Counted from the stretch's first letter, positions 7,515 through 35,199 are shown. The stretch is 37,822 bases of DNA from Thermoanaerobaculia bacterium (GCA_035455045.1 DATIFW010000156.1:1-37822); one strand, 5' to 3'. The notes: generated by a model from the sequence alone, not told the origin. Translations and numbers: made by a program.

Positions 7515-7540
7515 GGGGTTGCCGTGAACGTGGAGCGGGA

Positions 7541-10309
<2,769 letters not shown>

Positions 10310-12208: not shown

Positions 12209-12219
12209 GGAGGAACGAG

Positions 12220-13529: not shown

Positions 13530-13701
13530 GGAATTCCTCGGATATGCGGCGGCTGCTGATGCAGCCGCGAGGACCGAATTCCTTCTTATATGCGGCGGCT
13601 GCTGATGCAGCCGCCGATAGCTGGAAATCTTCTTCCCGAATGGCCGATGTCAAGGGCGCGCTTCGCGCGCCGCGCAGCGGTCGGAGACCCTTGACATCGG
13701 C
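13530..13701. repeat. block of palindromic units: a 27-bp direct repeat (13542-13568 and 13588-13614), each copy containing a GC hairpin, plus a 14-bp perfect inverted repeat (13643-13656 / 13688-13701) enclosing a second palindrome
   Basis: ATATGCGGCGGCTGCTGATGCAGCCGC occurs twice. The stems are GCGGCTGC-TGAT-GCAGCCGC (8 bp) and CGGCGGCTGC-TGAT-GCAGCCGCCG (10 bp). GCCGATGTCAAGGG...CCCTTGACATCGGC is the 14-bp inverted repeat. The inner palindrome is GGCGCGC-TTC-GCGCGCC. Confidence 0.75.
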
Positions 13702-17212: not shown

Positions 17213-17306
17213 GGCCTTTTCGTGATTATCCGCGTGACCGTGAAAACCAGAAGTTCGCCAGGAGTTCTCCAAGATCGGCGAAGAGCCGCGCCCCAACTTC
17301 CGGGGC
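17213..17306. promoter_or_regulatory. divergent promoter/operator region of regulator/HExxH pair 1
   Basis: 94-bp gap between divergent start codons. It contains GATTATC (GATAATC on the minus strand) 12 nt from the regulator ATG, and three CGTGA direct repeats (17221, 17233, 17239). Confidence 0.4.
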
Positions 17307-17780
17307 ATGGCGCGAATTCCGAAGTTTCTCCCCGCGGTGACCATCCTGGCGACGCTCACCGCGCGTGCGGATGGAGGTCTCGGAGTCGCCTTCGGCGACG
17401 CCGCAGGGATCGCGTCCCGAAAGCTCGAGGATGAGAGATGCCTGCTCGTGCTCTCCGACTTCAGCGACGCGTCGGGCCGCCCGCTCGCGGAGCGGCTTCA
17501 TGACACGGGTCTCACGGCTCGCGAGTTCTTCGAGCGGCTCGAATTTCGCAACGGCCGTCATGAGTCGACGTGCCAGCGGAGCCGTGTGGATGCGTTCGTG
17601 CACATCGGACAGCGCACGGTCTTCGTGTGCCCGGGTGGCTGCTTCGACTTCGGACGCCGGGACGTCGGCCACGCCTCGAACGTCCTCATCCACGAGATGC
17701 TCCACACGCTAGGACTGGGAGAAAACCCGCCCACGAGCCTCGGGATCACGAGCCGGGTGGCGGAGCGCTGCGGTCGGTGA
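17307..17780 (+). CDS. small secreted putative zinc metallopeptidase (HExxHxxGxxE, mini-metzincin/snapalysin-like)
   Basis: Signal peptide MARIPKFLPAVTILATLTARA. NVLIHEMLHTLGLGENPPTS motif. Four Cys conserved with the paralogue at 18650-19174. Confidence 0.65.
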   Translation: MARIPKFLPAVTILATLTARADGGLGVAFGDAAGIASRKLEDERCLLVLSDFSDASGRPLAERLHDTGLTAREFFERLEFRNGRHESTCQRSRVDAFVHIGQRTVFVCPGGCFDFGRRDVGHASNVLIHEMLHTLGLGENPPTSLGITSRVAERCGR

Positions 17781-17830: not shown

Positions 17831-18475
17831 TCAGGGTACCGTTCGCGTCGAGACGGTTCCCGACGCGGCGTGAAAGACGAGCTCCACGGACCCGACGCGA
17901 AGCTCGTCGCCGTCGCGCAGCGGGACGCGGCCTTCGATTCGATCCATGCCTGAGTACGTTCCGTTCTTGCTCCCGAGGTCCTCCAGCTCGGCGGTCTCGC
18001 CCTTGACGAGGATGCGCGCGTGGCGACGTGAGACGGAGGGGTCTCCGAGCCAGATGTCGACTTCCGGATCCCGGCCCAGGACGTTTTCGCCCTCCGAAAG
18101 ATAGAGGACGTTCAGGCCCCAGACGAGCCAGAGGCGGACTCCCGAGCGGCCCCGGTCAGGTGCTCGCTCGGCGACGACGTCCGCCGCAAAGGAATAGCCG
18201 AAGCCGTGGTGGGTCTTGAGGAACGCCGGGTGCTTCGCGTCGTCTCCGATGGCCGACCGAACGTCGTTCACGAGGCTCGTCAGATTCGACTCCGTGACGA
18301 GCACGTCCGGCCAGATGGCGGCGATGAGCTCCTCGCGGGAAAGCGCTCGCGGACGCTCCTTCAAAAGCAGTTCGAGGAGGTCGAACGCCTTGGGCGTGAG
18401 GTGGACCGGGTCGGGCCCGCGCAGAAGCAACCGAGAATCCGGGTCGAAGGTCACCTCGGCGAATCGGAAACGCAT
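17831..18475 (-). CDS. transcriptional regulator: OmpR/PhoB-type winged helix + FHA domain (paralogue of 16574-17212)
   Basis: MRFRFAEVTFDPDSRLLLRG..PKAFDLLELLL..LSREELIAAIWP..NLTSLVNDVR..HGFGYSF. FHA: NVLGRD..VSRRHARI..LEDLGSKNGTY. Roughly half the residues are identical to the first regulator by eye. Confidence 0.85.
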   Translation of the reverse strand: MRFRFAEVTFDPDSRLLLRGPDPVHLTPKAFDLLELLLKERPRALSREELIAAIWPDVLVTESNLTSLVNDVRSAIGDDAKHPAFLKTHHGFGYSFAADVVAERAPDRGRSGVRLWLVWGLNVLYLSEGENVLGRDPEVDIWLGDPSVSRRHARILVKGETAELEDLGSKNGTYSGMDRIEGRVPLRDGDELRVGSVELVFHAASGTVSTRTVP

Positions 18476-21797: not shown

Positions 21798-23071
21798 GCG
21801 TCCACCGGGTCCGGGGAGGCGCCGGGGCCGGTGCGCCGGAGCGACTCCGGCAGGAACGTCTGTTTGTAACCGGGTGGAAGCTTCGAGAGCTCCTCGGTGA
21901 GGGCGATGTGGAGGGACTCGGACGCGCGCGAGAGGAATGCGCCGCCCGAGAGACGCTGGAGGACGTCGTAGACGAAGCGGAGCACGAGGAGCACGATCTC
22001 CTCGCTGAACCCGGCGAGTCCCAGCTTGCCCGAGAGCTCCACGCCGAGGAGCTTCATCGTCTCCGGCCCGAGGATGTCCCGCATGACGAGGCGCGGGAGC
22101 CGCGCGAGATCGGCGGGGCGCAGGTACTTGAGCGGCAGCTCGCGCGGGACGTGCTCTCCCAGGAGCTTCTCGACGAACTCGACGAGGGCGCGCGTGATCT
22201 CGACGCCGTCCTCGGTCCGTCCGGCCTGCCGCGCGCGGATCGCGTGATAGAGCATCTCGGCGCGGGCGAAACGGGACGGGCCGCCGTCGCCGGGTTCGGG
22301 CTCGGGCAGGAGGCTGCGGTCGACGCCGAGGACGAAGCCGACCACGTTCCAGCAGTGGATGAACGCCTCGGCCTGGTCGGGCGTGAAGGCGGCGCCCATC
22401 GTCTTCATGCCGCGGAGGACGACGTACGCGAACGTCTGAAGCGTGTAGGCCATGTCCTCCTGGCAGATGGGATGCCCCCACGCCGGGTTCCAGCGCGCCT
22501 CTTCGTAGACCTTGCCCATGTCGTGGCCGGCGCCCGTCGCGGTCGCGAGGATGAGGTGGCGCACGGCAGCGTGCAGGAGTCGCACCTTCTGGACGGAGAG
22601 AATGCCCTTGGCGCCGGGCGCGAGGCCGCCCGGGAGCATCGCGTCGCGCACCATCTGAGACGTCTCGAGGATGCGCAGGCCGGGGCGGTCCTTGAGGTAC
22701 GTGGTCAGCCCGAGGACGTGGATGCCGTTCCGCATCACGTAGCACTCGGGCAGGCTCGCGCAGACGAGCAGCACCGTCGCGCCGAAGCCGTTGTCGTAGA
22801 AGAATTTCTGGCCGGCCTTCACGAGAGCGGGGTCGGCCCACGGCGGCGGGTCGGCGCTCTTGACCGCGAAGTCGTGGACGGGTGAGGGGAGGTTCGCGTG
22901 CGTGAAGTCGCCTTCGAACGTAAGGCCGAAGAGGAAGTCGTTCATTCTTTTCAGACCCGTGCGGCCGCCACCCGCGTCCTCGTAGAGCGCGGCGACGGCC
23001 GCGTCGGCGAGCGGGTCGCCGACGAGACGCATCGGGGCGAGCGCCGCATCGGTCCACGGCGTGAAGGTCAT
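21794..23071 (-). CDS. MpaB/Lcp-like oxygenase family protein (DUF2236-type)
   Basis: 425 aa from ATG 23071. The all-helical sequence has family-like blocks (LPECYVMRNGIHVL, VRLLHAAVRH, QEDMAYTLQTFAYVVLRGM). Assigned by recollection of the family profile, so moderate confidence. Confidence 0.65.
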   Translation of the reverse strand: MTFTPWTDAALAPMRLVGDPLADAAVAALYEDAGGGRTGLKRMNDFLFGLTFEGDFTHANLPSPVHDFAVKSADPPPWADPALVKAGQKFFYDNGFGATVLLVCASLPECYVMRNGIHVLGLTTYLKDRPGLRILETSQMVRDAMLPGGLAPGAKGILSVQKVRLLHAAVRHLILATATGAGHDMGKVYEEARWNPAWGHPICQEDMAYTLQTFAYVVLRGMKTMGAAFTPDQAEAFIHCWNVVGFVLGVDRSLLPEPEPGDGGPSRFARAEMLYHAIRARQAGRTEDGVEITRALVEFVEKLLGEHVPRELPLKYLRPADLARLPRLVMRDILGPETMKLLGVELSGKLGLAGFSEEIVLLVLRFVYDVLQRLSGGAFLSRASESLHIALTEELSKLPPGYKQTFLPESLRRTGPGASPDPVDA

Positions 23072-25494
23072 CTGCCGTCTCCCTCGGTGCGCGGCGGCGT
23101 GAACGCCAGCCGGAAGCTGATCGCCGGGTTCAGGTAGAAGGCCGGGATCAGGTAGCGGAACGCCGCACGGCTCATGTGGCTGAACTCCGTCGAGCCCGCG
23201 AGTTCGGCCGCGCCGCCGCGGATGACGCTCGAGACCATGGCGGTCTCGCCGTGGCCCTGCGTCACGAGAGTGGCCGTCCAGTCGCGGGCGTTTCCCGCCA
23301 TGCCGCGCACGCCGTACACGGAGACGTCGGTCGGGTACGAGTCGACTGGCAGCGGCCGCGGGCGGCCCGGGTTGCTCTCTCCCGAGTTGCAGAAGCTCGC
23401 GTCGAAACGATCTCCCCACGGGAACGCGCGCCCGTCCACTCCGCGCGCGGCTTTCTCCCATTCGAATTCGGTCGGGAGGCGGTACTCCCGCCCGTCGCGC
23501 GCGGAGCGCCACTCGGCGTATGCGACGGCGGAGTGCCACGTGATGCTCACGCAGGGGCGGCGGGGATGCATCTCTTCGCCGAGGAGGTCCCGCGCCGGGA
23601 GCGTAAATCGCCCGTTCGCGTCCACCTCGAGATAGGTGCTCCCGCCCACGTCCTTCTTCGGGGAGTGCAGCGCGGCCTTCGCGGGGTCGGTCGCGACGAG
23701 GTCGTTCAGGAACTCGACGTACTCGCCCATCGTGACGGGATGTACGCCGATGCAGAAATCCTCGCTCTCGGCCATCTTCCCGGGCAGCCCCCAGCCCGGA
23801 AGCGCAGGGTCGCCGCCGAGGACGTACGGTCCCGCGGGCACGTGGACGAAGCCCTCGCCGATCTCGGCGGGCGTGAGCAGCCGCACGCGGCCGGCCCAGG
23901 TCCGCGAGCGCGAGATGAAGACGGGGTAGCGCGTTTCGGCGCGGCCCCGCGCGCGCAGGACGACGAGGTAGTTGCCCATCGGAAGCGGCAGGGAAGGCAG
24001 CGGCGTGCGCCCGAGGAGGCGCTCGTTCCCCGGGACGAGTCGGCGATCCTTCTCGGCGAACTCGTAGAGCCAAACCTCGGCGCCGGGCGGATCCGAATCC
24101 AGCGCGAGCGAGCCGTCGCCTTTGAGGGAGGTGGCATGGCGCCCGTCGTCGAAGGCCGCGGCGATCTGCCCGAAGTACCGCACGTTCCTCTGGTCGTGCT
24201 GCTCCTCGGCCTCGAGGAGCTGCTCGAAGAAGTAGTCGGCCATGACCGCCCGCGCCTCGGAGTGGCTCTCGTCGTGGCCAAGGGCGCCCGCGAGCGTCAT
24301 GACGAGTTTCGAGCCGGTGGTCGCGAGCTGGACGCGCGCGTCGCGCAGGCGGTCTTCGGCCGACGTGAGCGGTTTCTTCTCGTTCACACTCTGCCAGGGC
24401 TGGAAGCCGCCGCGCAGCGACTCGACTTCTCGTTCGAGGGCGGCCATCTCCTCCTTCTTCCCGCGGTAGTCTTCGAGGATCTGGCGTCCGCGAAGTGCGA
24501 GGACGCCGGCGTTCTCCTGCCGCTTGACCTTGTCGGCCTCGGCCTCGAGCCAGGCCTGGATCTCGTCCTGCAGCTCCAGGACGGACGCGTGGCGTGCGTC
24601 AGGAGACTTCGCGAGGGCCTTGAGACACGTGCGCTCGAGCGCGAGGGGGATCTCGCGCGCCGGCGTCCGCTCGCGCGGCGGCTTCGGGTTGTCGCGCAGG
24701 ACGGCCGCGAGCGTCGCGATCGGGTTCGCGCCCGAGAAGGGCCGCTCGAGCGTGAGGATCTCGTACATCATGATGCCCAGCGCCCAGACGTCGGACCGCT
24801 CATCCACCGGAGAGGACGCTGCCTGCTCGGGCGACATGTACGCAGGCGTCCCGACCATCTCGTCCACCCGCGTGTGGTCCGTGCCGGAGGCGAGGACCTT
24901 TCCGTCTCCGCGGTCGATCACCTTCGCGAGGCCCCAGTCGAGGACCTGCACCTCGCCGTGCTCGCCGAGCATGACGTTCGCGGGCTTGAGGTCGCGGTGG
25001 AGGACTCCGCGCGAATGCGCGAAGTCGATCGCCTGCGTGACCTGCAGGAGGACCTGCACGAGGCGCGTGATGGAGTACCGGGAGATCGTCTCGCGATCGC
25101 CCGCGCGCAGGCCGCCGAGCACGTCGGCGAGGGTGCGGCCGCGGACGTACCGCATCGCGCAGAAGGGAGCACGGTCGCCGACGACGAGGGCGTGCAGGGG
25201 CACGACGTTTGGGTGCTCGAGCTGGCCCAGGATGCGCATCTCGTCGAGGAAACGGGCGCGGCGGGTGGGGTCCTCGCCCTTGGCGACCTTGAGCGCGACC
25301 TCTCGCCCGAGAGAGGGATCACGCGCGAGGAACACCGCTCCCATGCCTCCCTCGGCGAGGAGCCTGACGATCTCGAAGCGGACGGCGCCCGACGTGTCCC
25401 GCGGCGCGTCCGCCGGAAGCGAGGGCGCGGCCGCGCTTTCCGGCGTCGGGGCGAAGGTTTCCTCTTCGGAGGGATCGCTGTCCTGCCGGCTCAT
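23068..25494 (-). CDS. bifunctional Ser/Thr protein kinase / formylglycine-generating-enzyme (SUMF1/FGE-sulfatase) family protein
   Basis: ATG 25494. GGMGAVFLARD, HRDLKPANVM, DWGLAK, GTPAYMSPEQ. Then a coiled-coil region, a PEGA-like segment (GAEVWLYEF..GNYLVVLRARG), and a C-terminal FGE domain (VTMGEYVEFL, YRLPTEFEWEKAARG, GNARDWT). Confidence 0.85.
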   Translation of the reverse strand: MSRQDSDPSEEETFAPTPESAAAPSLPADAPRDTSGAVRFEIVRLLAEGGMGAVFLARDPSLGREVALKVAKGEDPTRRARFLDEMRILGQLEHPNVVPLHALVVGDRAPFCAMRYVRGRTLADVLGGLRAGDRETISRYSITRLVQVLLQVTQAIDFAHSRGVLHRDLKPANVMLGEHGEVQVLDWGLAKVIDRGDGKVLASGTDHTRVDEMVGTPAYMSPEQAASSPVDERSDVWALGIMMYEILTLERPFSGANPIATLAAVLRDNPKPPRERTPAREIPLALERTCLKALAKSPDARHASVLELQDEIQAWLEAEADKVKRQENAGVLALRGRQILEDYRGKKEEMAALEREVESLRGGFQPWQSVNEKKPLTSAEDRLRDARVQLATTGSKLVMTLAGALGHDESHSEARAVMADYFFEQLLEAEEQHDQRNVRYFGQIAAAFDDGRHATSLKGDGSLALDSDPPGAEVWLYEFAEKDRRLVPGNERLLGRTPLPSLPLPMGNYLVVLRARGRAETRYPVFISRSRTWAGRVRLLTPAEIGEGFVHVPAGPYVLGGDPALPGWGLPGKMAESEDFCIGVHPVTMGEYVEFLNDLVATDPAKAALHSPKKDVGGSTYLEVDANGRFTLPARDLLGEEMHPRRPCVSITWHSAVAYAEWRSARDGREYRLPTEFEWEKAARGVDGRAFPWGDRFDASFCNSGESNPGRPRPLPVDSYPTDVSVYGVRGMAGNARDWTATLVTQGHGETAMVSSVIRGGAAELAGSTEFSHMSRAAFRYLIPAFYLNPAISFRLAFTPPRTEGDGR

Positions 25495-25749
25495 CGCAAC
25501 TCCAGCATCACGTGCCGGTCCATTCCCCTCCTCGATCGTCCCGAAGCGACGTGGACGCGCGGATCGTACCAGCCGCAGCCACCGGGTTTTTCTTCGGAAG
25601 TGCGCTGCCCCCTCGAGCGTCGTCAGGACGCCTGAGGATCGTGCTCTCTCGAATTCCGCGGTAGTGCGTCCGCTCGCGTCTTTACCTGATGCGAACGTTT
25701 CATTGCACCGGGACTCCATCCTACCCGATCCTTACTGCAGGAGAGCGTC
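25495..25749. promoter_or_regulatory. 255-bp divergent intergenic region between the kinase-FGE operon and the ten-gene redox operon
   Basis: It must carry both promoters. AGGAGAG Shine-Dalgarno lies 5 nt upstream of GTG 25750. No specific boxes called. Confidence 0.4.
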
Positions 25750-26280
25750 GTGAGGCCGCAAAAGAGGACCGCTAAGCGCTACGAGATGGTCAACGTGCGC
25801 CCGGGCTACCTGATGATCGAGCTCGAGAACCACACTCTCGCCCGGCGCTGCTACTTCGTGGCAGAGCGGATCCCGCCCCTGGAGGAGTACCGCGAGGGCA
25901 ATCGGTTCTGGAAGCCCCAGACGGCGGCCCAGACCATTCAGTTCGACGTCCGCGACACCGACACCGGAGAGGTGGTGCCCTTCGGCGAGCTCGCGGGCCT
26001 TCTGTATTACGCCTGCTGCGACAAGGACAGCGCCGTCTACCAGATGGGCGACCTGGCCCACGACCAGCGCGTCTCGCTTTACGTGGCGATCACCACCGAG
26101 AGCGAGAAGGGTCATACGCCCATGCCCGTCGAGAAGGTCCGGATCCTCAACACGCTCTTCAACGAGCGCCTGACCAGTCCCGGGAAGAAGGTGCTGATCC
26201 TGCCCGACCTCTTCGGTCTTTACCGGAAGATCACCTACGGGCAAATGGCGGTCGACTTCGGCCTCACGTCCATGGAATGA
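25750..26280 (+). CDS. hypothetical protein, first gene of the redox/sensor operon
   Basis: 176-aa ORF with non-repetitive, protein-like composition, a Shine-Dalgarno, and 10-nt spacing to the next gene. No family recognised. Confidence 0.55.
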   Translation: MRPQKRTAKRYEMVNVRPGYLMIELENHTLARRCYFVAERIPPLEEYREGNRFWKPQTAAQTIQFDVRDTDTGEVVPFGELAGLLYYACCDKDSAVYQMGDLAHDQRVSLYVAITTESEKGHTPMPVEKVRILNTLFNERLTSPGKKVLILPDLFGLYRKITYGQMAVDFGLTSME

Positions 26281-26290
26281 GGAGCACAGG

Positions 26291-26620
26291 ATGAAGATTC
26301 AGGAACTCGCGGAGCGGCTCGAGCTCAAGGCGGCCACCAAGGTCTTCGATCGGGACGTGACGGGCGTCTACATCTCGGACATGGTCAGCGACGTGATCGC
26401 AAACGCCAAGGCGGGCGACCTGCTGGTCACCGCACAGGCGCACGCCAACGTGATCGCCGCCGCAAACCTGGTCGACAACTGCGCCGTCGTGATCACCCAG
26501 GGGAAGGTCCTTGCCGACGACGTCGTGAAGATGGCGGAGAAGGCCGAGATCACGGTCTTCACCACGGCCCTGAATCGCTGGCAAATGGCCACGAAGCTCT
26601 ATGAGGCCGGCATTCGCTAG
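26291..26620 (+). CDS. DRTGG domain protein (hydrogenase-cluster-associated type)
   Basis: 109 aa. ISDMVSDVI..GDLLVT.Q.H.NVIAAA...AVVIT.GK......V..A....I.VF.T fits the DRTGG pattern. GAGGAG Shine-Dalgarno. Confidence 0.7.
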   Translation: MKIQELAERLELKAATKVFDRDVTGVYISDMVSDVIANAKAGDLLVTAQAHANVIAAANLVDNCAVVITQGKVLADDVVKMAEKAEITVFTTALNRWQMATKLYEAGIR

Positions 26621-26654
26621 ACGGTCGCCGCGAGGCGGCCCCAGAGGTGAGGGC

Positions 26655-27023
26655 ATGCTTCTCGCGGAGATCGTCACGCTCCTCGGTTGCACGGAGCTGC
26701 TGGCGCTCGACCAGGCCGGCGACCGCGAAATCGCCGCTTGCTTCGCCGCCGACCTGATGAGCGAGGTGCTGGCCTTTTCGGGCCACGGGCCTCTCCTCGT
26801 CACCGGATTGACCAATTTGCAGTCGGTGCACACGGCCGAGGTGGTCGACGCGCAGGCCGTCCTCTACGTGAACGGCAAGCGGCCCGACGCGCAGGTCCTG
26901 GCCGTGGCGCGCGCGCGCGGCCTGCCCCTCCTGTCCACCGCCCTGACCATGTACGAAGTCTGCGGCCGCCTGCACCGGAGCGGCCTGCCCGTCTCCACCA
27001 AGGAACAGGGGACCCCACCCTGA
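26655..27023 (+). CDS. DRTGG domain protein (second copy)
   Basis: AADLMSEVLAF..GPLLVTGLTNLQSVHTAEVVDAQAVLYVNGKRP...LAVARARGLPLLST.LTMYEVCGRL. ATG 26655. Confidence 0.7.
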   Translation: MLLAEIVTLLGCTELLALDQAGDREIAACFAADLMSEVLAFSGHGPLLVTGLTNLQSVHTAEVVDAQAVLYVNGKRPDAQVLAVARARGLPLLSTALTMYEVCGRLHRSGLPVSTKEQGTPP

Positions 27024-27448
27024 GCGAGGTTCTCTATGCCGAGACCTTCCCGATCCGCGGGGGCGATTTCGAGCATGGGGGAGAGGTGGCCACTCGCATC
27101 AAGTCCATCTGCAAGGACCTGGGAATCCGGCCCGACCTCATCCGCCGGCTTTCCATCGCCAACTTCGAGGCGGAGATGAACGTCATCATGCACGCCGACG
27201 AGGCGGACCTGAGCTTCCAGGTTCTGCCCGAGGCGGTGCGGGTGGTGGTGGCGGACCGCGGCCAGGGAATCCCAGACATCGAGCTGGCGATGACTCCGGG
27301 TTGGTCCACCGCGACACCCGCGATGCGCGCCCGCGGCTTCGGAGCAGGGCTGGGGTTGCCCAACATCAAGAACAGCGCGGACGAGTTCGAGCTGAAATCG
27401 ACTCCCGGAGTCGGGACGACTCTCACCTATGCGGTGCGACTTGTCTGA
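27020..27448 (+). CDS. histidine-kinase-like ATPase (anti-sigma-factor/Ser-kinase type HATPase_c) of hydrogenase-type regulatory clusters
   Basis: FPIRGGDFEHGGEVATRIKSICKDLGI..IRRLSIANFEAEMNVIMHA....DRGQGIPD...GFGAGLGLPNIK. The start is uncertain: the only codon preceding the conserved N-terminus is CTG 27020, which overlaps the upstream stop. The next canonical start, GTG 27086, would remove conserved residues. Confidence 0.65.
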   Translation: MSEVLYAETFPIRGGDFEHGGEVATRIKSICKDLGIRPDLIRRLSIANFEAEMNVIMHADEADLSFQVLPEAVRVVVADRGQGIPDIELAMTPGWSTATPAMRARGFGAGLGLPNIKNSADEFELKSTPGVGTTLTYAVRLV

Positions 27449-28769
27449 CGTGGCGGAAGGCGACCGCCCCAAGAGCAAGCACTCGATCGTGTTCGACCGG
27501 GAGCTGTGCGTGGGTTGCGTCGACTGCTGCAAGTCGTGTCCCACCGGGGCGATCCGCGTACGGGCCGGGTGCGCCGTCGCTGACCCCGACCTCTGCATCG
27601 ACTGCGGCGAGTGCATCCGCTGGTGCCGGCACGGGGCGATGCACGCGGCCACAGCAAGCACCGCGGATCTCAAACGCTTCAAGTACACGGTGGCCTTGCC
27701 CTCGCTTACTCTTTACTCCCAGTTCGGCAAGGAGGTGGAGCCCGGCCAGGTGCTGCAGGCCCTCCGCAGCCTGGGGTTCGACGACGTCTACGACCTTTCG
27801 GCCATGTGCGACATGCACGCGAGCGCCACCGACGCCTACCTCTCGGAATGCCGCGGTCCCTGGCCGAAAATCTCGGTGACCTGCCCCGCGATCATCCACC
27901 TGATCCAGCTCCGTTACCCGGACATGATCGACAACCTGCTGCCGATCGAGACGGCGCGGGAACTGGCCGCCAAGCTGCTGCGCCGTCGGCTGGTGGCGGA
28001 AAAGGGGCTCGCGCCCGGCGACATCGGCATCTTCTTCATCACGCCCTGCAGCGCCATGCTGCAATCCATCCATCACCCGGAGGCCCTGGAAGCGTCGTAC
28101 CTGGACGGGGCCTTCTCCATCGCCGAGGTCTACGGTCCGCTGCTCAAGGCGATCGAGGCCTGCGGGCCGGTGGAGAATCCCCCGCCCATCAGCGAGCGCG
28201 GGCTGCTCTGGGCGATGGCGGGCGGGGAGATCGCGGGCCTGCGCAACGCCAACACGATCACCGTGGCCGGGGTGCGCGACGTGCTGCGGGTCTTCGACCA
28301 CATCGAGGAGGGCAAGCTTCAGGCCGTCGACTTCATCGAGGCCTACATCTGCCCGGACGGCTGCATCAGCGGGCAGCTCACGGTGGAGAACCGTTACGCC
28401 GCCCGGCGCACCGTGCAGCAGATCGTGCGCCGGCACGGCCGGCTCGCGGGCGAAGGGGCGGTCGTGCCCGAGGAGAAGGTGCGAGCGATGTTGCGGGAGC
28501 ACTTCTTCGACCTGGAGGAGCACCTCAAGGCGCGTCCGGTGCGCCCGCTCGGACGCGACTTGCGCGAGGCGGCCGCGCGCAAGCGAGAGGAAGAACGCGT
28601 GCTCGCGCAACTGCCGGCCAAGGACTGCGCGGCCTGTGGCGCCCCCGGTTGCGCCGCCCACGCCGAGGACGTGGCGCGCGGCCTGGCCGCGCTGGAAGAT
28701 TGCGTGTTCGTCCGCATCGAACGCCTGAAGGAGGCGATGGCCTCCACGAAGGAATCCGTCTATGACTAA
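27429..28769 (+). CDS. [FeFe]-hydrogenase large-subunit-like (H-domain) protein with degenerate H-cluster motifs, an N-terminal 2x[4Fe-4S] and a C-terminal RnfB-type Fe-S motif (putative sensory/regulatory)
   Basis: CVGCVDCCKSCP / CIDCGECIRWC. H-domain motif equivalents are VTCPAI (vs TSCCPxW), ITPCSAM (vs MPCxxKxxE) and EAYICPDGCISGQ (vs ExMxCxxGCxxGGGQP). C-terminal DCAACGAPGCAAHAEDVARG..DC. Confidence 0.8.
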   Translation: MRCDLSDVAEGDRPKSKHSIVFDRELCVGCVDCCKSCPTGAIRVRAGCAVADPDLCIDCGECIRWCRHGAMHAATASTADLKRFKYTVALPSLTLYSQFGKEVEPGQVLQALRSLGFDDVYDLSAMCDMHASATDAYLSECRGPWPKISVTCPAIIHLIQLRYPDMIDNLLPIETARELAAKLLRRRLVAEKGLAPGDIGIFFITPCSAMLQSIHHPEALEASYLDGAFSIAEVYGPLLKAIEACGPVENPPPISERGLLWAMAGGEIAGLRNANTITVAGVRDVLRVFDHIEEGKLQAVDFIEAYICPDGCISGQLTVENRYAARRTVQQIVRRHGRLAGEGAVVPEEKVRAMLREHFFDLEEHLKARPVRPLGRDLREAAARKREEERVLAQLPAKDCAACGAPGCAAHAEDVARGLAALEDCVFVRIERLKEAMASTKESVYD

Positions 28770-29163
28770 GCAGATGCTCGTGCTGGAGCTGTGCTGCCCC
28801 CAGTGCGGCGCGGCTCTCACCGAGGGCACGCGGGTGCGCCTCGACGGCCACGTGCGCCGTACCCACGAGCAGAGGGAGGTCTCCCTGAGCGCCGTCTTCG
28901 GCGACGACAGCGGGGAGGGCGACCCTGCCCTGAAGGAGGGCGACGTCGTCGATCTCAGCTGCCCCAAGTGCGAGGCCAGCCTGATGCTGCCGCTGGCCTG
29001 CAAGATCTGCGGCGCCCCCATGGCGTCGCTCAACATTGCCAAGGGCGGCACCCTCGAGTTCTGCACCCGGCGCGGATGCCGGGCCCACGCCTTCGGGGGC
29101 ACCGGCAACATCGACGACATGATGAGCCTGATGAATCGCATGTTCGAGACGCCCTACGACTAG
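28762..29163 (+). CDS. small Cys-rich (multi CxxC zinc-ribbon-like) protein of unknown function
   Basis: 133 aa. CPQC...CPKC...CKIC...C..RGC. The start overlaps the upstream stop by 8 nt. Confidence 0.55.
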   Translation: MTKQMLVLELCCPQCGAALTEGTRVRLDGHVRRTHEQREVSLSAVFGDDSGEGDPALKEGDVVDLSCPKCEASLMLPLACKICGAPMASLNIAKGGTLEFCTRRGCRAHAFGGTGNIDDMMSLMNRMFETPYD

Positions 29164-29187
29164 GAGACGACCGCGGGAGCCCACGAC

Positions 29188-29664
29188 ATGGATGCGCCGC
29201 GCCCCTACGACTTCAAGAACCTCCAGTACAGGGGCGAGGGCGGGGTCCTGATCCCGCTCCTGCAGAAGTATCAGAACGAGGACGGCTACATCTCCCGCGA
29301 GCGGATCGCCGAGATCCACAGGAAGACGGGAGTGCCTCTCTCGCAGATCTTCGGGGTGGCCACCTTCTACGCGCAGTTCCGGCGGCACCCCGTGGGCCGC
29401 AACATCATCAGGGTCTGCCACGGCACGGCCTGCCACGTGGCGAACGCCAGGGCGATCTCCAGGACCCTCGAAGACCAGCTGCGGATCCGGGACGGCGAAA
29501 CCACGCCGGACCGCGAGTTCACCCTCGAGACGGTGGCTTGCCTCGGCTGCTGCAGCCTGGCCCCGGTGGTCATGATCAACAAGGACACGCACGGCAACCT
29601 CAAGCCCACCGACCTTCGGAAAGTGCTCAGGCCTTACCGGGAGAAGAGGGCGGCAGGCCCGTGA
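29188..29664 (+). CDS. NuoE/HydC-like thioredoxin-fold [2Fe-2S] subunit
   Basis: LLQKYQNEDGYISRERI, VCHGTACHV and ACLGCCSLAPVVMIN cluster ligands. Confidence 0.9.
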   Translation: MDAPRPYDFKNLQYRGEGGVLIPLLQKYQNEDGYISRERIAEIHRKTGVPLSQIFGVATFYAQFRRHPVGRNIIRVCHGTACHVANARAISRTLEDQLRIRDGETTPDREFTLETVACLGCCSLAPVVMINKDTHGNLKPTDLRKVLRPYREKRAAGP

Positions 29665-31424
29665 GAATTCTCGTGGGTCTCGGCACGTGCGGAATGGCGG
29701 CAGGCGCCGGGGCGACCTACGCCGCACTCCAGGCCAGGACGGGAACGCTCAGCGGTCACTGCAACGTGGGGAAGACCGGCTGCGTGGGTATGTGCTTCCG
29801 CGAGCCACTCGTGGAAGTGCGCGAGGACGACGGGACGCGCTGGCAGTACGGGCAGATGACTCCGGAGAGGGTCGACCGCCTGCTCGAGGAGCACGTCGGA
29901 AAGGGCCAGCCCATCGAGGAGTGGCTCGTGTGGACCAGCGAAGGGAAGGGCCGGGAAAAGACGTTCCTCGACCGCCAGCAGCGCATCGTGCTGCGCAACT
30001 GCGGCCTGATCGACCCGGAGAGGATCGAGGAGTACTTGGAGGTGGGCGGGTACCAGGCCCTGAAGAGGGTCCTCGAACGGAAGGACCCTGACGGCCTCAT
30101 CAACACGATCATCGAATCCGGGCTGAGAGGGCGCGGGGGGGCGGGCTTCCTGACCGGGATGAAGTGGCGCTTCACCCGGCTGGCCTCGGGGAAGCAGAGA
30201 TACGTGATCTGTAACGCCGACGAGGGCGACCCCGGGGCCTTCATGGACCGCTCGGTCCTGGAGAGCGACCCCCACTCGGTGCTGGAGGGCATGGCCATCG
30301 CCGGCCACGCCATCGGCGCCACGCAGGGCTACATCTATGTGCGCGCCGAGTACCCCATGGCCGTCGAGCGGCTGAACATCGCCGTCGCCCAGGCCGAGGC
30401 GCACGGCCTCCTGGGTCACGACGTCCTGGGCACCGGGTTCGAGTTTCACGTCGAGCTGAAGGAAGGGGCGGGGGCCTTCGTTTGCGGCGAGGAGACGGCC
30501 CTCATCGCCTCGATCGAGGGCCGCCGCGGAATGCCTCGCATCCGGCCGCCTTTCCCCGCGGTCAAGGGACTGTGGGAGTGCCCGACCAACATCAACAACG
30601 TCGAGACTTTCGCCAACGTGCCTTGGATCGTGCTCAACGGGGCCCTGGCCTTCAACCGCCTCGGCACCGCCAACAGCAAGGGCACGAAGGTCTTCGCGAT
30701 GGCGGGCAAGATCCGGCGGGGCGGGCTGGTGGAGGTCCCGATGGGGATCTCCATCCGTGCGATCGTCAACGACGTCTGCGGGGGCATCAAGGAAGACCGG
30801 AAGTTCAAGGCCGTGCAAATGGGCGGCCCCTCCGGGGGCTGCATCCCCGCGGAGTTGCAGGACACCGTCATCGACTACGAGTCCATCAACAAGACGGGCG
30901 CAATCATGGGCTCGGGTGGGCTGGTGGTGCTCGACGAGACGACCTGCATGGTGGACGTGGCGCGTTTCTTCCTGGACTTCACACAGCGCGAGTCCTGCGG
31001 GAAGTGCACGTTCTGCCGGGTGGGCACCAAGCGAATGCTGGAGATCCTCGTCCGCATCACGGAGGGCCAGGGCCGGGAAGGGGACATCGAGAAGCTCGAG
31101 AACCTCGCCTCCCTCGTGAGGAACAACTCGCTCTGCGGCCTGGGCCAGACCGCCCCGAACCCGGTCCTCACGACCCTCAAGTACTTCCGGGGGGAGTACG
31201 AGGCGCACATCTCCAACCGCAAGTGTCCCGCCCACCAGTGCCAGGCCCTGCTCACCTATACCGTCAACGAGAAGTGCAACGGGTGCCAGGTGTGCAAGCG
31301 GGCCTGTGCGGCCAAGGCCATCACCGGCGAGAAGGGGAAGCCTCACGTCATCGATCACAGCCTGTGCGTCCGCTGCGACGAGTGCTATCGGGCCTGCCGC
31401 TTCGAAGCGATCACGAGGATGTAG
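29661..31424 (+). CDS. NuoF/HydB-like NADH-binding FMN Fe-S flavoprotein with an N-terminal [2Fe-2S] domain and a C-terminal 2x[4Fe-4S] domain
   Basis: GTG 29661 overlaps the nuoE-like stop (GTGA). GLRGRGGAGFLTGMKW, ICNADEGDPGAF, ESCGKCTFCRVG, SLCGLGQTAPNP. C-terminal CNGCQVCKRAC / CVRCDECYRAC. Confidence 0.9.
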   Translation: MRILVGLGTCGMAAGAGATYAALQARTGTLSGHCNVGKTGCVGMCFREPLVEVREDDGTRWQYGQMTPERVDRLLEEHVGKGQPIEEWLVWTSEGKGREKTFLDRQQRIVLRNCGLIDPERIEEYLEVGGYQALKRVLERKDPDGLINTIIESGLRGRGGAGFLTGMKWRFTRLASGKQRYVICNADEGDPGAFMDRSVLESDPHSVLEGMAIAGHAIGATQGYIYVRAEYPMAVERLNIAVAQAEAHGLLGHDVLGTGFEFHVELKEGAGAFVCGEETALIASIEGRRGMPRIRPPFPAVKGLWECPTNINNVETFANVPWIVLNGALAFNRLGTANSKGTKVFAMAGKIRRGGLVEVPMGISIRAIVNDVCGGIKEDRKFKAVQMGGPSGGCIPAELQDTVIDYESINKTGAIMGSGGLVVLDETTCMVDVARFFLDFTQRESCGKCTFCRVGTKRMLEILVRITEGQGREGDIEKLENLASLVRNNSLCGLGQTAPNPVLTTLKYFRGEYEAHISNRKCPAHQCQALLTYTVNEKCNGCQVCKRACAAKAITGEKGKPHVIDHSLCVRCDECYRACRFEAITRM

Positions 31425-31428
31425 GGGC

Positions 31429-34400
31429 ATGGAACTCGTCAAGCTCTACATCGACGGCAAGCGGGTCATCGCGGACAACCGGATGACGATCCTGGAAGTG
31501 GCCCGCGAGAACGGGATCACGTCGATCCCGACCCTCTGCCACGACGGTCGCCTCGAGCCCTTTGCCTCCTGCTACCTGTGCGTCGTCAAGGTGCGGGGTG
31601 GGCGCACTCTGACGCCCGCCTGCTCCACGAGGGTGGCGGCGGGCATGGTGGTGGAGACCTCCAACGCGGAGATCCGTCGTTCGCGGAAGGCGGCCCTCGA
31701 GCTGATGCTCTCCAACCACTTCGCGGATTGCATCGGCCCCTGTCAGCTGGCCTGCCCGGCCGGAGTGGACATTCAGGGCTACATCGCGCTCGCCGCTTTG
31801 GACAAGTACCGCGACGCCATCGCCCTCATCAAGGACCGCAATCCCCTGCCCGCGGTGTGCGGACGCGTCTGTACCCGGCCCTGCGAGGTCAAGGGCTGCC
31901 GGCGCACCCTGCTCGACGAGGCGGTGGGCGTCGACTACATCAAGCGATATCTCTCCGACCTCGACCTCGGCGACAAGAATCCCTGGCGCCCGAGCGTGGC
32001 CCCTCACAACGGAAAGAAAGTGGCCGTCGTGGGGGCGGGCCCGGCGGGGCTGTCCTGCGCCTACTACCTCGCCCTGCGCGGCTACAAGGTCTCGATGTTC
32101 GAGGCCCAGCCCGAGGCGGGGGGCATGCTGCGCTATGGCATCCCCGAATACCGCCTGCCGAAGGACGTCCTCGACCTTGAGATCAACCAGATCCTCGACC
32201 TCGGCGTCCAGCTCTCCACCAACGTCCAGCTCGGCCGCGACTTCACGATCGCAAGCCTCAAGCAGGTCGGTTACGACGCCGTCTTCCTGGGAATCGGGGC
32301 CTGGGACAGCTCCAAGATGCGCGTCGCGGACGAGGACTCCCCGGGGGTTCTGGCCGGCATCGAGTTCCTCAGGCAATTCGGCCTCAAGCGCAGGATCGAC
32401 ATCCACGGAAGGGTGCTCGTCGTGGGCGGCGGCAACACCGCCATCGACTGTGCGCGCACCGCCCTGCGCCTGGGCGTCGCCGAAGTGCGTCTCCTCTACC
32501 GGCGCACGCGCACGGAGATGCCCGCCAACCAGACGGAGATCGCCGAGGCCGAGCACGAGGGCGTGAAGATGGACTTTCTCGCCGCCCCCGTGCGCGTCCT
32601 GCGCGGCGAGAACGGCCGCGTGGCGGGGATGGAGTGCATTCGCATGGAGCTGGGCCAGCCCGACCAGAGCGGCCGCCGCAGCCCGAAGCCCGTTCGAGGC
32701 TCGGAGTTCCGCGTCGACTGCGATTTCGTGCTCGCCGCCATCGGCCAAGGCACGCGCGTCAAGGAGCTCGTGGACGGGCGGGTGCCCAACTTCCTGCCGC
32801 TCGGCGAGTCGCTGAGCCTCACGCGCTGGCAGACCGTGGAGGTCAACGAGCGCACGTTCGAGACCACCGTCGACGGCGTGTTCTCGGGGGGCGACGTCGT
32901 CACGGGAGCAGCCACCGCCATCGAGGCCATCGCCGCCGGACGCAAGGCCGCCTACGCCATCGACCGCTACGTGGCCACCGGCCGGGCCGAGCCCGAGCCG
33001 GTGGAGGTTTACAGCCGCAAGGACGCCTATCGGAAGGTCGACGTCGAGGACCTCCCGCCCGGCTCCGCAGACGGACGGCGGGGCATGCCCGTGCTCCTCC
33101 CGGCGGAGCGCGCCCTCAGCTTCGCCGAGGTCGAGACCGGCTACAGCGGCGAGGACCTGCGCCGGGAGACGGCGCGCTGCCTCGAGTGCGGCTGCACCGC
33201 TCTCTTCACCTGCGACCTGAGGCGCTACGCCACAGAGTACGGGGCCGACGTTCAGACGTTCATGGGCGAGGCCGTCGAGCACCGCGTCGACCGGCGACAC
33301 CCGTTGCTCGTGCTCGACCCCAACAAGTGCGTGCTGTGCGGCCGTTGCGTGCGGATCTGCAGCGAGCTCGTGGGGGTGGCCGCCTACGGCTTCGTCAACC
33401 GCGGCTTCGACACCGTGGTCAAGCCTGCGTTGGGCGACTCCCTGCTCGACACCGAGTGCGTGAGCTGCGGGCTCTGCATCGGCACCTGCCCCACGGGGGC
33501 CATCGCCGAAAAGCTCCCCCTCACCAAGCCCGGCCCCTGGAAGACCACGCGGGTGGAGTCGGTGTGTCCCTACTGCAGCGCGGGATGCCGGCTGGGCTAC
33601 GAGATATCCGGCACGACCCTGGTGCAGGTTTCGCGCGCGGCCGGAAACCCGGGCACCGGCGGCAACCACTGCAAGAAGGGCCGCTTCGGATACGGCCACG
33701 TGCAGTCGAAAGAGCGCCTGCGGTGGCCGCTGCTGCGCGTCGGGCGCGAGCTGCAGGAGACGAGCCTCGACGAAGCCCTGCGTTACGCGAGCATGCGGCT
33801 CAAGGAGCTCACCCGCCGCGTCAGCGGGGACCAGGTGGCGGTCTTCGTCTCCCCCCGCCTGACCAACGAGGAGATCTACCTCGCCCAGAAGCTGGCCCGG
33901 CTGGCCCTGCGCACGCACAACGTGACCTCGCTGACCCACCTCGTCAACCGCGAGCTCGAGGCCCCGGACGTGGTGTCCACGGCATCGCACGCGGACATCG
34001 CCGACGCCCAGGCCCTGCTCGTCGTCAACACGGCCCTCGACGAAGAGAGCTTCGCGGTGGACATCGCGTGCAAGCAGGCCATCCGCAAGGGAGCCCGCCT
34101 CGTCTACGTCGGCCCGGAGGACAACCGCACCTCGCGCTTTGCCGAGCTGCATCTGCGCTCCCTGCCCGGCGGACAGACTTTTGCCATCCTCGGCCTGCTG
34201 AAGGACTACGCCGCCCTCGAGCCGGGCGCCCTCGACGACCGGCCAGGGCTGTCCCGGGCGGTGGCCGATCTCTCCGACGAGCAACTCGAGAAGCTCTCCG
34301 GAGTGCCGCGCGCCGCCTCGCGCGAGGCGGCCGCCATCCTGTCGAAGACCATCCTCAAGGTGATGCTGTTCAACAAGGACTACCGTGGCGCGCGACAGGC

Positions 34401-35199
34401 CCACGACGAGCGGCTCTTCGCCGAGGCGGCCGCGGCCCTGGGCTGCTCGGTTCTCGCGCTACGCGAAAAGGCGAACACCCAGGGGCTGCTCGACATGGGC
34501 GCCGACCCGCGATGGCTGCCCGGTTACGTCGACCCCGAGGGCGGCGAGGCCCTGGAGCAGATGGAGAAAGAGCTGGGGGTGGTCCTGCGCGAACTCTCTC
34601 CGCCCGGACTGGACGTGGCCCAGCTCCTGCGCGAAAAGAAGATCAAGGTCGCCGTCGTGCTCGGCGAGGACCCGGTGGGCGCCGCCGGGTTCCCGCAGGA
34701 CCTGCGCGACGGCCTCCTCGCCGCCGATTTCCTGCTCGTGGGCGACCTCTTCCTCACCGCGACGGCGGCCAGCGCGACCGTGGCCTTGCCGCTGTCGAGC
34801 ACGGGGGAGACGAGCGGCACCATGACCAATGCCGAGCGTCGCGTTCAGCGGTTGCAGCGGGCGGTGCCCCCCGTGGGTGGGATCGAGACGTGGGAGATCC
34901 TCAGCCAGCTCGCCGGCCAGCTCGGCTACCGGTTCAAGATGAAGTACGGGTCCGTGCAGGACGTGACCGCGGAGATCCAACGGGTGGTGCCGATCTGGGC
35001 GGGGCTCGACCTCGACTCCGCGGGTGCGGTCTGGAATGCGGACGGCTTCAAGCTGCCCAAGGTCCCGTTCACCGGGTTGGGAAAGCCGGTCGCCCCCGTG
35101 CCCACCCTCGGGCTCGACAACCTCGAGGTCCGCTTCGGGACCTGGTTCGACACGATCTTCGAAAAGGCCCGCGCGGCGCCGCCCGTCGTCTCGCTGTAA
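31429..35199 (+). CDS. 1256-aa fusion: NuoG/HydA-type N-terminal [2Fe-2S] + GltD-like Fe-S/FAD/NAD(P)H oxidoreductase + 2x[4Fe-4S] + Mo-bisPGD-type [4Fe-4S] + truncated formate-dehydrogenase-alpha-like domain
   Basis: CHDGRLEPFASCYLCVV. GltD blocks CIGPCQLACPAG..PLPAVCGRVCTRPCE, KKVAVVGAGPAGLSCAYYL, LVVGGGNTAIDCART. CVLCGRCVRIC / CVSCGLCIGTCP. VCPYCSAGC...NHCKKGR. FDH-like blocks REKANTQGLLDMGADPRWLPGY and VVLGEDPV. The ORF is uninterrupted (no in-frame TGA). ATG 31429 lies 4 nt after the upstream stop. Confidence 0.85.
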   Translation: MELVKLYIDGKRVIADNRMTILEVARENGITSIPTLCHDGRLEPFASCYLCVVKVRGGRTLTPACSTRVAAGMVVETSNAEIRRSRKAALELMLSNHFADCIGPCQLACPAGVDIQGYIALAALDKYRDAIALIKDRNPLPAVCGRVCTRPCEVKGCRRTLLDEAVGVDYIKRYLSDLDLGDKNPWRPSVAPHNGKKVAVVGAGPAGLSCAYYLALRGYKVSMFEAQPEAGGMLRYGIPEYRLPKDVLDLEINQILDLGVQLSTNVQLGRDFTIASLKQVGYDAVFLGIGAWDSSKMRVADEDSPGVLAGIEFLRQFGLKRRIDIHGRVLVVGGGNTAIDCARTALRLGVAEVRLLYRRTRTEMPANQTEIAEAEHEGVKMDFLAAPVRVLRGENGRVAGMECIRMELGQPDQSGRRSPKPVRGSEFRVDCDFVLAAIGQGTRVKELVDGRVPNFLPLGESLSLTRWQTVEVNERTFETTVDGVFSGGDVVTGAATAIEAIAAGRKAAYAIDRYVATGRAEPEPVEVYSRKDAYRKVDVEDLPPGSADGRRGMPVLLPAERALSFAEVETGYSGEDLRRETARCLECGCTALFTCDLRRYATEYGADVQTFMGEAVEHRVDRRHPLLVLDPNKCVLCGRCVRICSELVGVAAYGFVNRGFDTVVKPALGDSLLDTECVSCGLCIGTCPTGAIAEKLPLTKPGPWKTTRVESVCPYCSAGCRLGYEISGTTLVQVSRAAGNPGTGGNHCKKGRFGYGHVQSKERLRWPLLRVGRELQETSLDEALRYASMRLKELTRRVSGDQVAVFVSPRLTNEEIYLAQKLARLALRTHNVTSLTHLVNRELEAPDVVSTASHADIADAQALLVVNTALDEESFAVDIACKQAIRKGARLVYVGPEDNRTSRFAELHLRSLPGGQTFAILGLLKDYAALEPGALDDRPGLSRAVADLSDEQLEKLSGVPRAASREAAAILSKTILKVMLFNKDYRGARQAHDERLFAEAAAALGCSVLALREKANTQGLLDMGADPRWLPGYVDPEGGEALEQMEKELGVVLRELSPPGLDVAQLLREKKIKVAVVLGEDPVGAAGFPQDLRDGLLAADFLLVGDLFLTATAASATVALPLSSTGETSGTMTNAERRVQRLQRAVPPVGGIETWEILSQLAGQLGYRFKMKYGSVQDVTAEIQRVVPIWAGLDLDSAGAVWNADGFKLPKVPFTGLGKPVAPVPTLGLDNLEVRFGTWFDTIFEKARAAPPVVSL

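Follow-up and report, generated by a model that had tools for sequence, protein, structure and literature searches.

A predicted Sporomusa-type transhydrogenase encoded beside a putative hydrogenase-type sensor cassette in Thermoanaerobaculia

Introduction

The Sporomusa-type Nfn enzymes (StnABC, also named NfnABC or Nfn-Bfu) are electron-bifurcating NADH/NADPH/ferredoxin transhydrogenases and, as such, ordinary equipment of anaerobes. Their large subunit, StnC, is described as a 1172-aa fusion in which an N-terminal [2Fe-2S] domain is followed by a GltD-like FAD/NADPH domain (residues 102-565) and then by a NuoG domain; toward its C-terminus (residues 683-1172), the NuoG domain is FdhF-like and catalytically inactive (PMC10482914). 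The purified Stn enzyme is reported to show no formate oxidation (PMC7483475), and in NfnA of Caldicellulosiruptor saccharolyticus the pterin site is described as incomplete and devoid of pterin density (PMC11829005). The FdhF-like domain of StnC is described as serving tetramer assembly. Here we analyze a stretch of 37,822 nucleotides of Thermoanaerobaculia DNA (Acidobacteriota; GCA_035455045.1 DATIFW010000156.1:1-37822), referred to in its entirety as the window, in which nine genes (g1 to g9) bring together a predicted enzyme of this type and a set of genes otherwise known from the vicinity of [FeFe]-hydrogenases.

The second group of described systems relevant to this locus is formed by the Group D (M2e, TamHydS-type) [FeFe]-hydrogenases. 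TamHydS catalyzes H+/H2 interconversion (PMC8163306), Group D rates are approximately a thousand-fold lower than those of group A (PMC11803613), and the published Group D genes are located on operons with group A hydrogenases (PMC8163306). The field has yet to establish what the “sensory” hydrogenases of Groups C and D respond to and by which route they pass the signal on.

We consider it probable that the locus consists of a Stn/NfnABC enzyme (g7-g9), an accessory protein of this enzyme (g6) and a sensor cassette that tunes it (g1-g5). What is new here is the combination of a known transhydrogenase with a hydrogenase-type sensor cassette, within one multi-phylum clade. Literature searches found no published description of a hydrogenase-type sensor cassette linked to Stn/Nfn-Bfu. 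The Bfu survey contains no mention of sensors or kinases, and neither it nor the cited Stn and Nfn passages refer to g6 or g1-g5.

Results

Organization of the nine-gene locus

Nine open reading frames (ORFs), all co-directional on the + strand, occupy positions 25750-35199 of the window:

25750..26280, + strand: g1, 176-aa orphan protein, first gene of the cassette
26291..26620, + strand: g2, single-domain DRTGG protein, 109 aa
26655..27023, + strand: g3, another DRTGG-like protein, 122 aa with the ATG at 26655 as start
27020..27448, + strand: g4, SpoIIAB/RsbW-like HATPase_c_2 protein, ~142 aa, apparent CTG start
27429..28769, + strand: g5, Group D (M2e, TamHydS-type) [FeFe]-hydrogenase-like Fe-S protein, 446 aa
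28762..29163, + strand: g6, zinc-ribbon-type Cys-rich protein, 133 aa
29188..29664, + strand: g7, predicted StnA/NfnC (BfuC, NuoE/HydC-like) [2Fe-2S] subunit, 158 aa
29661..31424, + strand: g8, predicted StnB/NfnB (BfuB, NuoF/HydB-like) FMN/NADH subunit, 587 aa
31429..35199, + strand: g9, predicted StnC/NfnA (Nfn-BfuA), 1256 aa

Consecutive genes either overlap by 4-20 nt or are separated by gaps of 4-34 nt. All eight junctions quoted in the initial annotation of this DNA were found on the + strand at the positions given there, and the gene order and domain assignments that it proposed were borne out by Pfam and NCBIfam. It had counted ten genes in the operon; there are nine, a number to which its own gene list and eight junctions also lead. 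All nine ORFs have the high G+C content at third codon positions expected of genuine genes (the window has 67% G+C). A related metagenome contig from the Joint Genome Institute (JGI; L081), for which the genes had been called independently, encodes nine matching products of 177, 109, 118, 148, 421, 133, 156, 586 and 1254 aa, and the proteins of a metagenome-assembled genome (MAG) of Thermoanaerobaculia (L001) are 97% identical to those of the window across all nine genes. No RNA genes were detected when the window was scanned with Rfam and for tRNAs.

The g7-g9 genes and their relationship to Stn/NfnABC

The last three genes directly adjoin one another, with a 4-nt overlap at g7/g8 and a 4-nt gap at g8/g9. 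The best PDB matches of the g9 product, extending over nearly its full length, were NfnA of C. saccharolyticus (9bov_A, expectation value (E) 7.7e-248) and then StnC of Sporomusa ovata (8oh5_C, E 2.8e-222). For g8, the best full-length matches were NfnB 9bov_B (E 5.7e-252, 841 bits), StnB 8oh5_B (819 bits) and the Thermococcus sibiricus NfnB 9n5u_B (814 bits), outscoring NiFe-Bfu B at 725 bits and HydB proteins at 622-695 bits. The g7 product (PF01257, E 1.3e-47) matched T. sibiricus NfnC (9n5u_C, E 3.8e-46) ahead of HydC 8a6t_C, NiFe-Bfu C 7t2r_C and then 9bov_C and StnA 8oh5_A.

The Pfam domains of g9 follow the order Fer2_4, Fer4_20, Pyr_redox_2, Fer4_Nqo3, Molybdop_Fe4S4 and Molybdopterin, i.e., a [2Fe-2S] domain, a GltD-like FAD/NADPH domain, a NuoG-like Fe-S domain and a degenerate FdhF-like domain. 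Since the published StnC has an equal fusion architecture, the GltD/FDH-like mega-subunit (FDH, formate dehydrogenase) is the defining Stn subunit. The initial annotation had given StnC as a HydA N-terminus joined to GltD, and had taken the locus for a candidate novel bifurcating complex combining features of Stn and Sfr. The 1172-aa protein is in fact described as GltD plus NuoG plus an inactive FdhF-like part, and with g8 and g9 both matching 9bov and 8oh5 best, the claim of novelty had to be abandoned for the enzyme part, whose architecture is that of a characterized Stn.

Several sequence signatures point in the same direction. In an alignment to 8oh5_C, the counterparts of StnC residues K170 and R239 are K172 and R242 of g9, both of which are invariant in 78 related loci; K170 is described as a ligand of the cluster next to the FAD that is strictly conserved in StnC. 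The NADPH-type motifs GGGNTA and YRRT of g9 are the same as in StnC and NfnA. The N-terminal motif of the NuoF-like g8 product (GLGtCGmAAG...tGCvGMC), with three cysteines, is identical to that of 9bov_B and 8oh5_B, while the corresponding motif of NiFe-Bfu B retains four. According to PMC11829005, the N-terminal three-cysteine site of the C. saccharolyticus NfnB holds Zn; the extra N-terminal [2Fe-2S] cluster initially ascribed to g8 thus gives way to a Zn-type motif. The C-terminal 2x[4Fe-4S] ascribed to the same protein is present as two CxxCxxCxxxC motifs (C539-C549 and C569-C579).

The FDH-like domain of g9 is degenerate, as had been proposed. The position of the FDH catalytic Cys/Sec-His pair (the Mo ligand) is occupied by V839-N840, and the match to true FDHs stops ~200 residues short of the FDH C-terminus, and g9 has no C-terminal pterin-binding domain; of the 672 positions of the Fdh-alpha model, only 2-509 find a counterpart. 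The NCBIfam scores of g9 lie under the curated cutoffs. Assignment of g9 to SfrAB or to an active FDH was considered and rejected, given its fusion, the NuoEF-type partners and the missing Cys/Sec-His.

Homology therefore gives good support to the identification of g7-g8-g9 as a Sporomusa-type Nfn, a predicted electron-bifurcating NADH/NADPH/ferredoxin transhydrogenase, and the general function first suggested for the locus is upheld on this basis.

A variation was observed around the cluster next to the FAD. StnC C114, which has been proposed to approach this cluster, is replaced by I, V or A in all 78 loci (Ile at residue 115 of the window g9), and 65 of the 78 have a Cys at the position of g9 residue 144, where S. 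ovata has Ile. The two changes together may represent a ligand swap.

The g5 gene and the Group D hydrogenases

The g5 product contains the Pfam domains Fe_hyd_lg_C (E 4.5e-24), PF04060 (FeS) and two Fer4, and no PAS domain. Its N-terminal 2x[4Fe-4S] cysteines lie at 27-37 and 56-66, the H-domain is complete with four H-cluster cysteines (C152, C207, C308 and C312), and the C-terminal Cx2Cx4Cx16C motif is exact (C400/403/408/425). The statement in the initial annotation that the locus has no hydrogenase catalytic subunit was consequently too strong as regards g5. No second HydA-like or FDH-like gene occurs elsewhere in the window or within 10 kb on either side of the locus in its nearest relatives (L001, L002 and L003).

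Compared to CpI, g5 carries the replacements C299 (the proton-relay cysteine) to T151, M353 to T205 and M497 to Y306. A hydroxyl residue at the M353 position is typical of M2e, for which the Group D hallmarks have been defined (PMC8163306, PMC10407848, PMC11803613), and the Group D proton-path glutamates E252 and E289 of TamHydS correspond to E267 and E304 of g5. By these residues g5 is classified as a Group D (M2e, TamHydS-type) [FeFe]-hydrogenase homologue. In an alignment of the window protein with 114 full-length representatives obtained by an exhaustive search (115 sequences in total), T or S was found at the M353 position in 99 sequences, and E at the two glutamate positions in 85 and 105.

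The position equivalent to CpI K358 sets the Stn-linked proteins apart. This lysine (K228 in CrHydA1) contacts the distal CN ligand, and K228 variants fail in H-cluster assembly (PMC9516953). Across the 115 sequences the position is K in 80 and R in 12, whereas in all 21 Stn-linked sequences it is M, I, L, V or T (M210 in the window). Because the lysine on which H-cluster assembly depends in the enzymes studied is replaced, H2 sensing by g5 is doubtful.

Linkage of the cassette to stnABC

The distribution of g1-g5 was determined in 53 related loci for which at least 5.8 kb of sequence upstream of the fusion gene was available. Twenty of these, with a fusion protein at least 59% identical to that of the window, were defined as the clade; they come from Acidobacteriota, Eisenbacteria, Myxococcota and others. 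The whole g1-g5 set was present in 19 of the 20 clade loci, compared to a g5 homologue in only two of the 33 more distant ones; most distant stnABC loci lack g1-g5. The proposal that the enzyme is linked to a hydrogenase-type sensor module survives, and the initial annotation was likewise right that DRTGG, HATPase and HydA-like genes form a type of set known from the vicinity of HydABC operons.

The nine-gene block is kept as a unit in ~20 species-level genomes, with variable flanks. As the flanking genes differ across the clade, in which a widely shared neighbor was sought and none found, the nine genes appear to form a self-contained unit. The largest flanking family, absent from the window, comprises Glu/Leu/Phe/Val dehydrogenases, encountered at four to five loci:

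L008:2579-4012, - strand: Glu/Leu/Phe/Val dehydrogenase
L013:2184-3635, - strand: Glu/Leu/Phe/Val dehydrogenase
L021:2328-4079, - strand: Glu/Leu/Phe/Val dehydrogenase
L002:17778-19142, - strand: Glu/Leu/Phe/Val dehydrogenase

Such a neighbor fits a transhydrogenase that balances NAD(P)H in amino-acid catabolism.

Within the block, two modules can be distinguished, g1-g5 being separable from g6-g9. No g1-g5 genes were seen in L010, L018 and L023 (their absence is firm only for L010, which has enough upstream sequence), and in L016 they lie ~3 kb downstream of the fusion gene. A different arrangement was found in a MAG of an uncultured bacterium (L031:3467-13792), with the gene order stnA-DRTGG-HATPase_c_2-HydS-DRTGG-PHP-HATPase-small [2Fe-2S]-stnB-stnC, which we take to resemble the hyd operons of Thermoanaerobacter. 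A similar sensor set thus stands beside stn in two gene arrangements. The HydS homologue of L031 retains Lys at the K358 position.

The g6 gene

The g5 and g6 genes, which overlap by 8 nt, lie directly upstream of stnABC. The g6 product has the conserved pairs C12/C15, C67/C70, C80/C83 and C101/C106 plus H109, in the pattern CPxC...LSxxYG...CPxC...CxxC...CSRxGCxxH. Searches of Pfam, NCBIfam and PDB returned only sub-threshold generic zinc-ribbon matches and no family. The gene is present in all 20 clade loci and remains with g7-g9 where g1-g5 are absent or displaced (L010, L018, L023 and L016). In distant phyla, among them Calditrichaceae, Bacteroidota and Ignavibacteria, g6-like genes also adjoin stnABC, either upstream or downstream:

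L036:13767-14174: g6-like gene
L043:3911-4318: g6-like gene
L044:13766-14173: g6-like gene
L077:13735-14166: g6-like gene

Tandem-duplicated forms of ~290 aa are encoded in L055, L061, L062, L072 and L079. From this linkage we infer that g6 is an accessory of the Stn enzyme, acting in its assembly or as an additional subunit, and it may represent an unrecognized accessory component of Stn enzymes in several phyla.

The g1-g4 genes

The first gene of the cassette, g1, always accompanies g2-g5 in the loci. Its product had no sequence match in Pfam, NCBIfam or PDB, and profile searches gave sub-threshold generic matches; among 120 listed of its 415 homologues, none has a functional name or a Pfam domain. 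A confident AlphaFold2 (AF2) model based on a 52-sequence alignment (pLDDT 83, pTM 0.79; the single-sequence model, with a pLDDT of 31.5, was unusable) predicts long N-terminal beta hairpins and an alpha/beta C-terminal half. A Foldseek search of PDB with this model yielded nothing at E <= 0.001. Its best matches, NusG domain 2 and Tudor domains, were non-significant (TM <= 0.30) and were rejected.

A divergent Ser/Thr kinase gene (23068-25719, - strand; Pkinase and FGE-sulfatase domains) precedes g1, and the longest-ORF start of the former lies 30 nt from the g1 start. The start of the kinase gene, that of g1, or both, are probably located further in, or else the promoters lie within coding sequence.

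The g2 product matches PF07085 (DRTGG) over the Pfam cutoff (E 2.5e-07) and is kept in all cassette-bearing loci, while g3 falls slightly under the cutoff for the same family (E 1.1e-4). The g3 start at 26655 is favored over 26601, as the orthologues are 115-122 aa long. The g4 product matches PF13581 (E 3.2e-08), PF02518 (E 1.2e-07) and, under the curated cutoff, the anti-sigma F factor family TIGR01925 (E 1.3e-11). ATP-binding motifs could be read by eye in its translation: an N-box (EAEMN), DxGxG (DRGQG) and GxGxGL (GFGAGLGL). It is a putative Ser kinase or partner-switching component.

The 5' end of g4 is unusual. Position 27020 is a CTG overlapping the g3 stop (cCTGA), and the homologous position in L002 is ATG; three codons downstream of the g4 start, L001 and L003 have a GTG for which the window has GTT (27020-27031). 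Lacking a canonical start, g4 would therefore be translated from the CTG by translational coupling, unless the sequence contains an error.

Distribution of the core triad

The core genes are very widespread, with matches in more than 575 species-level genomes, and 80 loci were retrieved. The triad of NuoE-like, NuoF-like and fusion genes is kept in these loci wherever the contig extends far enough upstream. Among the sources are Acidobacteriota, Eisenbacteria, Bacteroidota, Ignavibacteria, Calditrichaceae, Desulfobacterota and the cultured Syntrophorhabdus aromaticivorans. Stn has already been listed by Kremp et al. in the acidobacterium Holophaga foetida (PMC7483475). The public names of the fusion protein are inconsistent (FAD-dependent oxidoreductase, formate dehydrogenase major subunit, nitrate reductase), and the present analysis extends the range of Stn/NfnABC to Thermoanaerobaculia and to many uncultured lineages where these names mislead.

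Other features of the window

The remainder of the window encodes several products of separate interest. Two genes (16574-17359 and 17831-18475, both on the - strand) specify proteins pairing an OmpR-type winged helix with a C-terminal FHA domain, and a second Ser/Thr kinase gene, with PD40 repeats, lies at 7229-10309 (+ strand); this neighborhood, rich in phosphothreonine signaling, is unrelated to the stn finding. Beta/gamma-crystallin domains (PF00030, E 8.7e-18) occur in a 217-aa protein encoded at 3910-4563 (- strand), and beta-oxidation genes are found at 36-2731. An apparent nucleoside-catabolism group (6342-7514 and 10961-16455) includes a Na+-dependent nucleoside transporter, a cytidine/deoxycytidylate deaminase domain protein, an amidohydrolase and a pyrimidine-nucleoside phosphorylase. 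Upstream of this group is a gene for a metalloenzyme-superfamily protein, which we would guess to be a phosphopentomutase.

Discussion

By analogy with the solved enzymes, the FAD in the GltD-like part of g9 would oxidize NADPH, and electrons would pass singly along the Fe-S chain of this subunit to the FMN/Fe-S bifurcation site in g8/g7, which would reduce NAD+ and ferredoxin; the reaction would be reversible. The FdhF-like domain would be a cofactor-less structural remnant. The HydS-like g5 could report H2 or low-potential reductant to the HATPase g4 and the DRTGG proteins g2 and g3, with g1 as a further component, and the cassette would then adjust the expression or the activity of the transhydrogenase. 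Both the signaling role of g1-g5 and the path of the signal are inferred from gene linkage and family resemblance.

Five observations weigh against this interpretation or parts of it. The promoter and terminator scan gave counts not above those in shuffled sequence and defined no operon boundaries, which leaves co-transcription presumed. No DNA-binding or sigma-factor component is recognizable in g1-g5, so that the cassette lacks an output. The NADPH specificity of the clade enzyme is suggested at the level of motifs. Without the K358-equivalent lysine, g5 may not sense H2 at all. Finally, the sensory role of TamHydS is itself a proposal, and its C-terminal cluster was unresponsive to H2 (PMC13104023).

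Of the other explanations, that of a new bifurcating complex distinct from Stn, with the mega-subunit replacing HydA and perhaps reducing a novel acceptor, would find some encouragement in the inconsistent public names of the fusion protein, the NCBIfam scores under the curated cutoffs, the loss of C114 and the Cys at 144 in most loci. Against these stand the architecture and signature residues, equal to those of StnC/NfnA, the absent FDH active site, the Stn/Nfn-specific N-terminal motif of g8 with its top scores to NfnB and StnB, and the earlier report of Stn in the acidobacterium H. foetida (PMC7483475); we consider such a complex very improbable. Equally little credence can be given to the view that g1-g6 are mere neighbors with no functional tie to stnABC. 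Most distant stnABC loci do lack g1-g5 and no operon was defined by the promoter and terminator scan, but the nine-gene order, with its overlaps or gaps of at most 34 nt, is kept in ~20 genomes labeled as several different phyla, whose flanks differ, L031 presents a second, independent arrangement, and g6-like genes adjoin stnABC in Bacteroidota, Ignavibacteria and Calditrichaceae.

The remaining explanations concern what g5 does. It could be a functional [FeFe]-hydrogenase module of low activity, supplying electrons to the Stn complex or withdrawing them from it and making the whole an H2-linked NAD(P)H/ferredoxin enzyme: the four H-cluster cysteines, the Group D glutamates and the N-terminal 2x[4Fe-4S] relay are kept, TamHydS interconverts H+ and H2 (PMC8163306), and g5 overlaps g6 by 8 nt upstream of stnABC. 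This is nevertheless unlikely, as the whole clade has a hydrophobic residue or Thr at the K358 position and K228 variants assemble no H-cluster, Group D enzymes are ~thousand-fold slower than group A (PMC11803613), g6-g9 stay together in L010, L018, L023 and L016, where the cassette is either dispensed with or displaced, and g5 has no docking domain homologous to the HydA N-terminus. A more serious candidate, possible although not the one we favor, is that g5, no longer having a di-iron subcluster, serves as an Fe-S sensor of the redox state of ferredoxin or NAD(P)H and not of H2, through which the cassette tunes the transhydrogenase to redox balance. The clade-wide change of K358 to M, I, L, V or T, as opposed to K or R in 92 of the 115 family sequences and K in L031, speaks for it, as does the target operon, which encodes a redox-balancing enzyme and not a hydrogenase, and the lack of any hydrogenase gene in the window or within 10 kb on either side in L001-L003. 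On the other hand, E267, E304 and the bridging C312 are strictly conserved in most of the clade, which is hard to understand if the [2Fe] site is gone, and other parts of the genome may carry hydrogenase and maturase genes.

The interpretation we prefer thus remains a Stn/NfnABC enzyme with g6 as its accessory and g1-g5 as the cassette tuning it. In its most specific and tentative form, a lysine-less Group D homologue would have been recruited, together with the HATPase, two DRTGG proteins and g1, as an Fe-S redox sensor controlling the transhydrogenase, with g6 as a Stn accessory. If true, Bfu-type transhydrogenases would gain their first known example of dedicated regulation, and the HydS families would be general low-potential redox sensors. 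A cassette with a non-hydrogenase target and a lysine-altered sensor would offer a clean test system for distinguishing H2 from redox sensing and for defining the roles of the HATPase and DRTGG proteins, and g1 and g6, both without a known family, are further leads.

Comparison with described systems

The closest described systems are StnABC of S. ovata (8oh5; PMC7483475, PMC10482914) and NfnABC of C. saccharolyticus (9bov; PMC11829005), which are reported to have the same three-gene order (NuoE-like, NuoF-like, fusion). The likeness extends to the domain order of the large subunit, including the cofactor-less FdhF-like domain, and to the three-Cys motif and C-terminal 2x[4Fe-4S] of the B subunit. 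The locus differs in that g9 is ~80 residues longer (1256 versus 1172/1178 aa), has Ile in place of S. ovata C114 and an extra Cys at 144, and belongs to a high-GC Acidobacteriota lineage, in which the operon is preceded by g1-g5 and g6.

TamHydS of Thermoanaerobacter mathranii (PMC8163306, PMC10407848, PMC13104023) shares with g5 the 2x[4Fe-4S], the H-domain, the Cx2Cx4Cx16C motif and the lack of a PAS domain. In both, C299 is absent, a hydroxyl residue occupies the M353 position, the Group D glutamates are kept, and a histidine-kinase-like ATPase is encoded nearby (g4 in the window). The C299 position is Thr in g5 and Ala in TamHydS, and the K358 equivalent is Met in g5, whereas the published TamHydS residue pattern occurs with Lys in the aligned family. 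The operons also differ: the downstream trimeric Bfu enzyme is here a predicted Stn transhydrogenase and not a group A HydABC hydrogenase, and in place of an AraC regulator there are DRTGG genes and the orphan g1.

With the HydABC (FeFe-Bfu) enzymes, such as those of T. maritima, A. woodii and T. kivui, the locus has in common the homologous BfuB/BfuC core (g8 and g7) and the NuoG-like relay in the A subunit. Unlike HydA, g9 has no Fe_hyd_lg_C domain and carries GltD and FdhF-like domains instead, while the H-domain of g5 comes without a NuoG-like N-terminus, and g8 scores only 622-695 bits with HydB, compared to 814-841 bits with NfnB/StnB. In the NADPH-dependent SfrAB of Geobacter sulfurreducens, the GltD-like SfrB and the Mo-less FDH-like SfrA are described as resembling the two halves of StnC (PMC7483475). 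These are two separate subunits without a NuoE/NuoF module, whereas in the window they are fused in the 1256-aa g9, which is encoded together with the predicted StnA and StnB.

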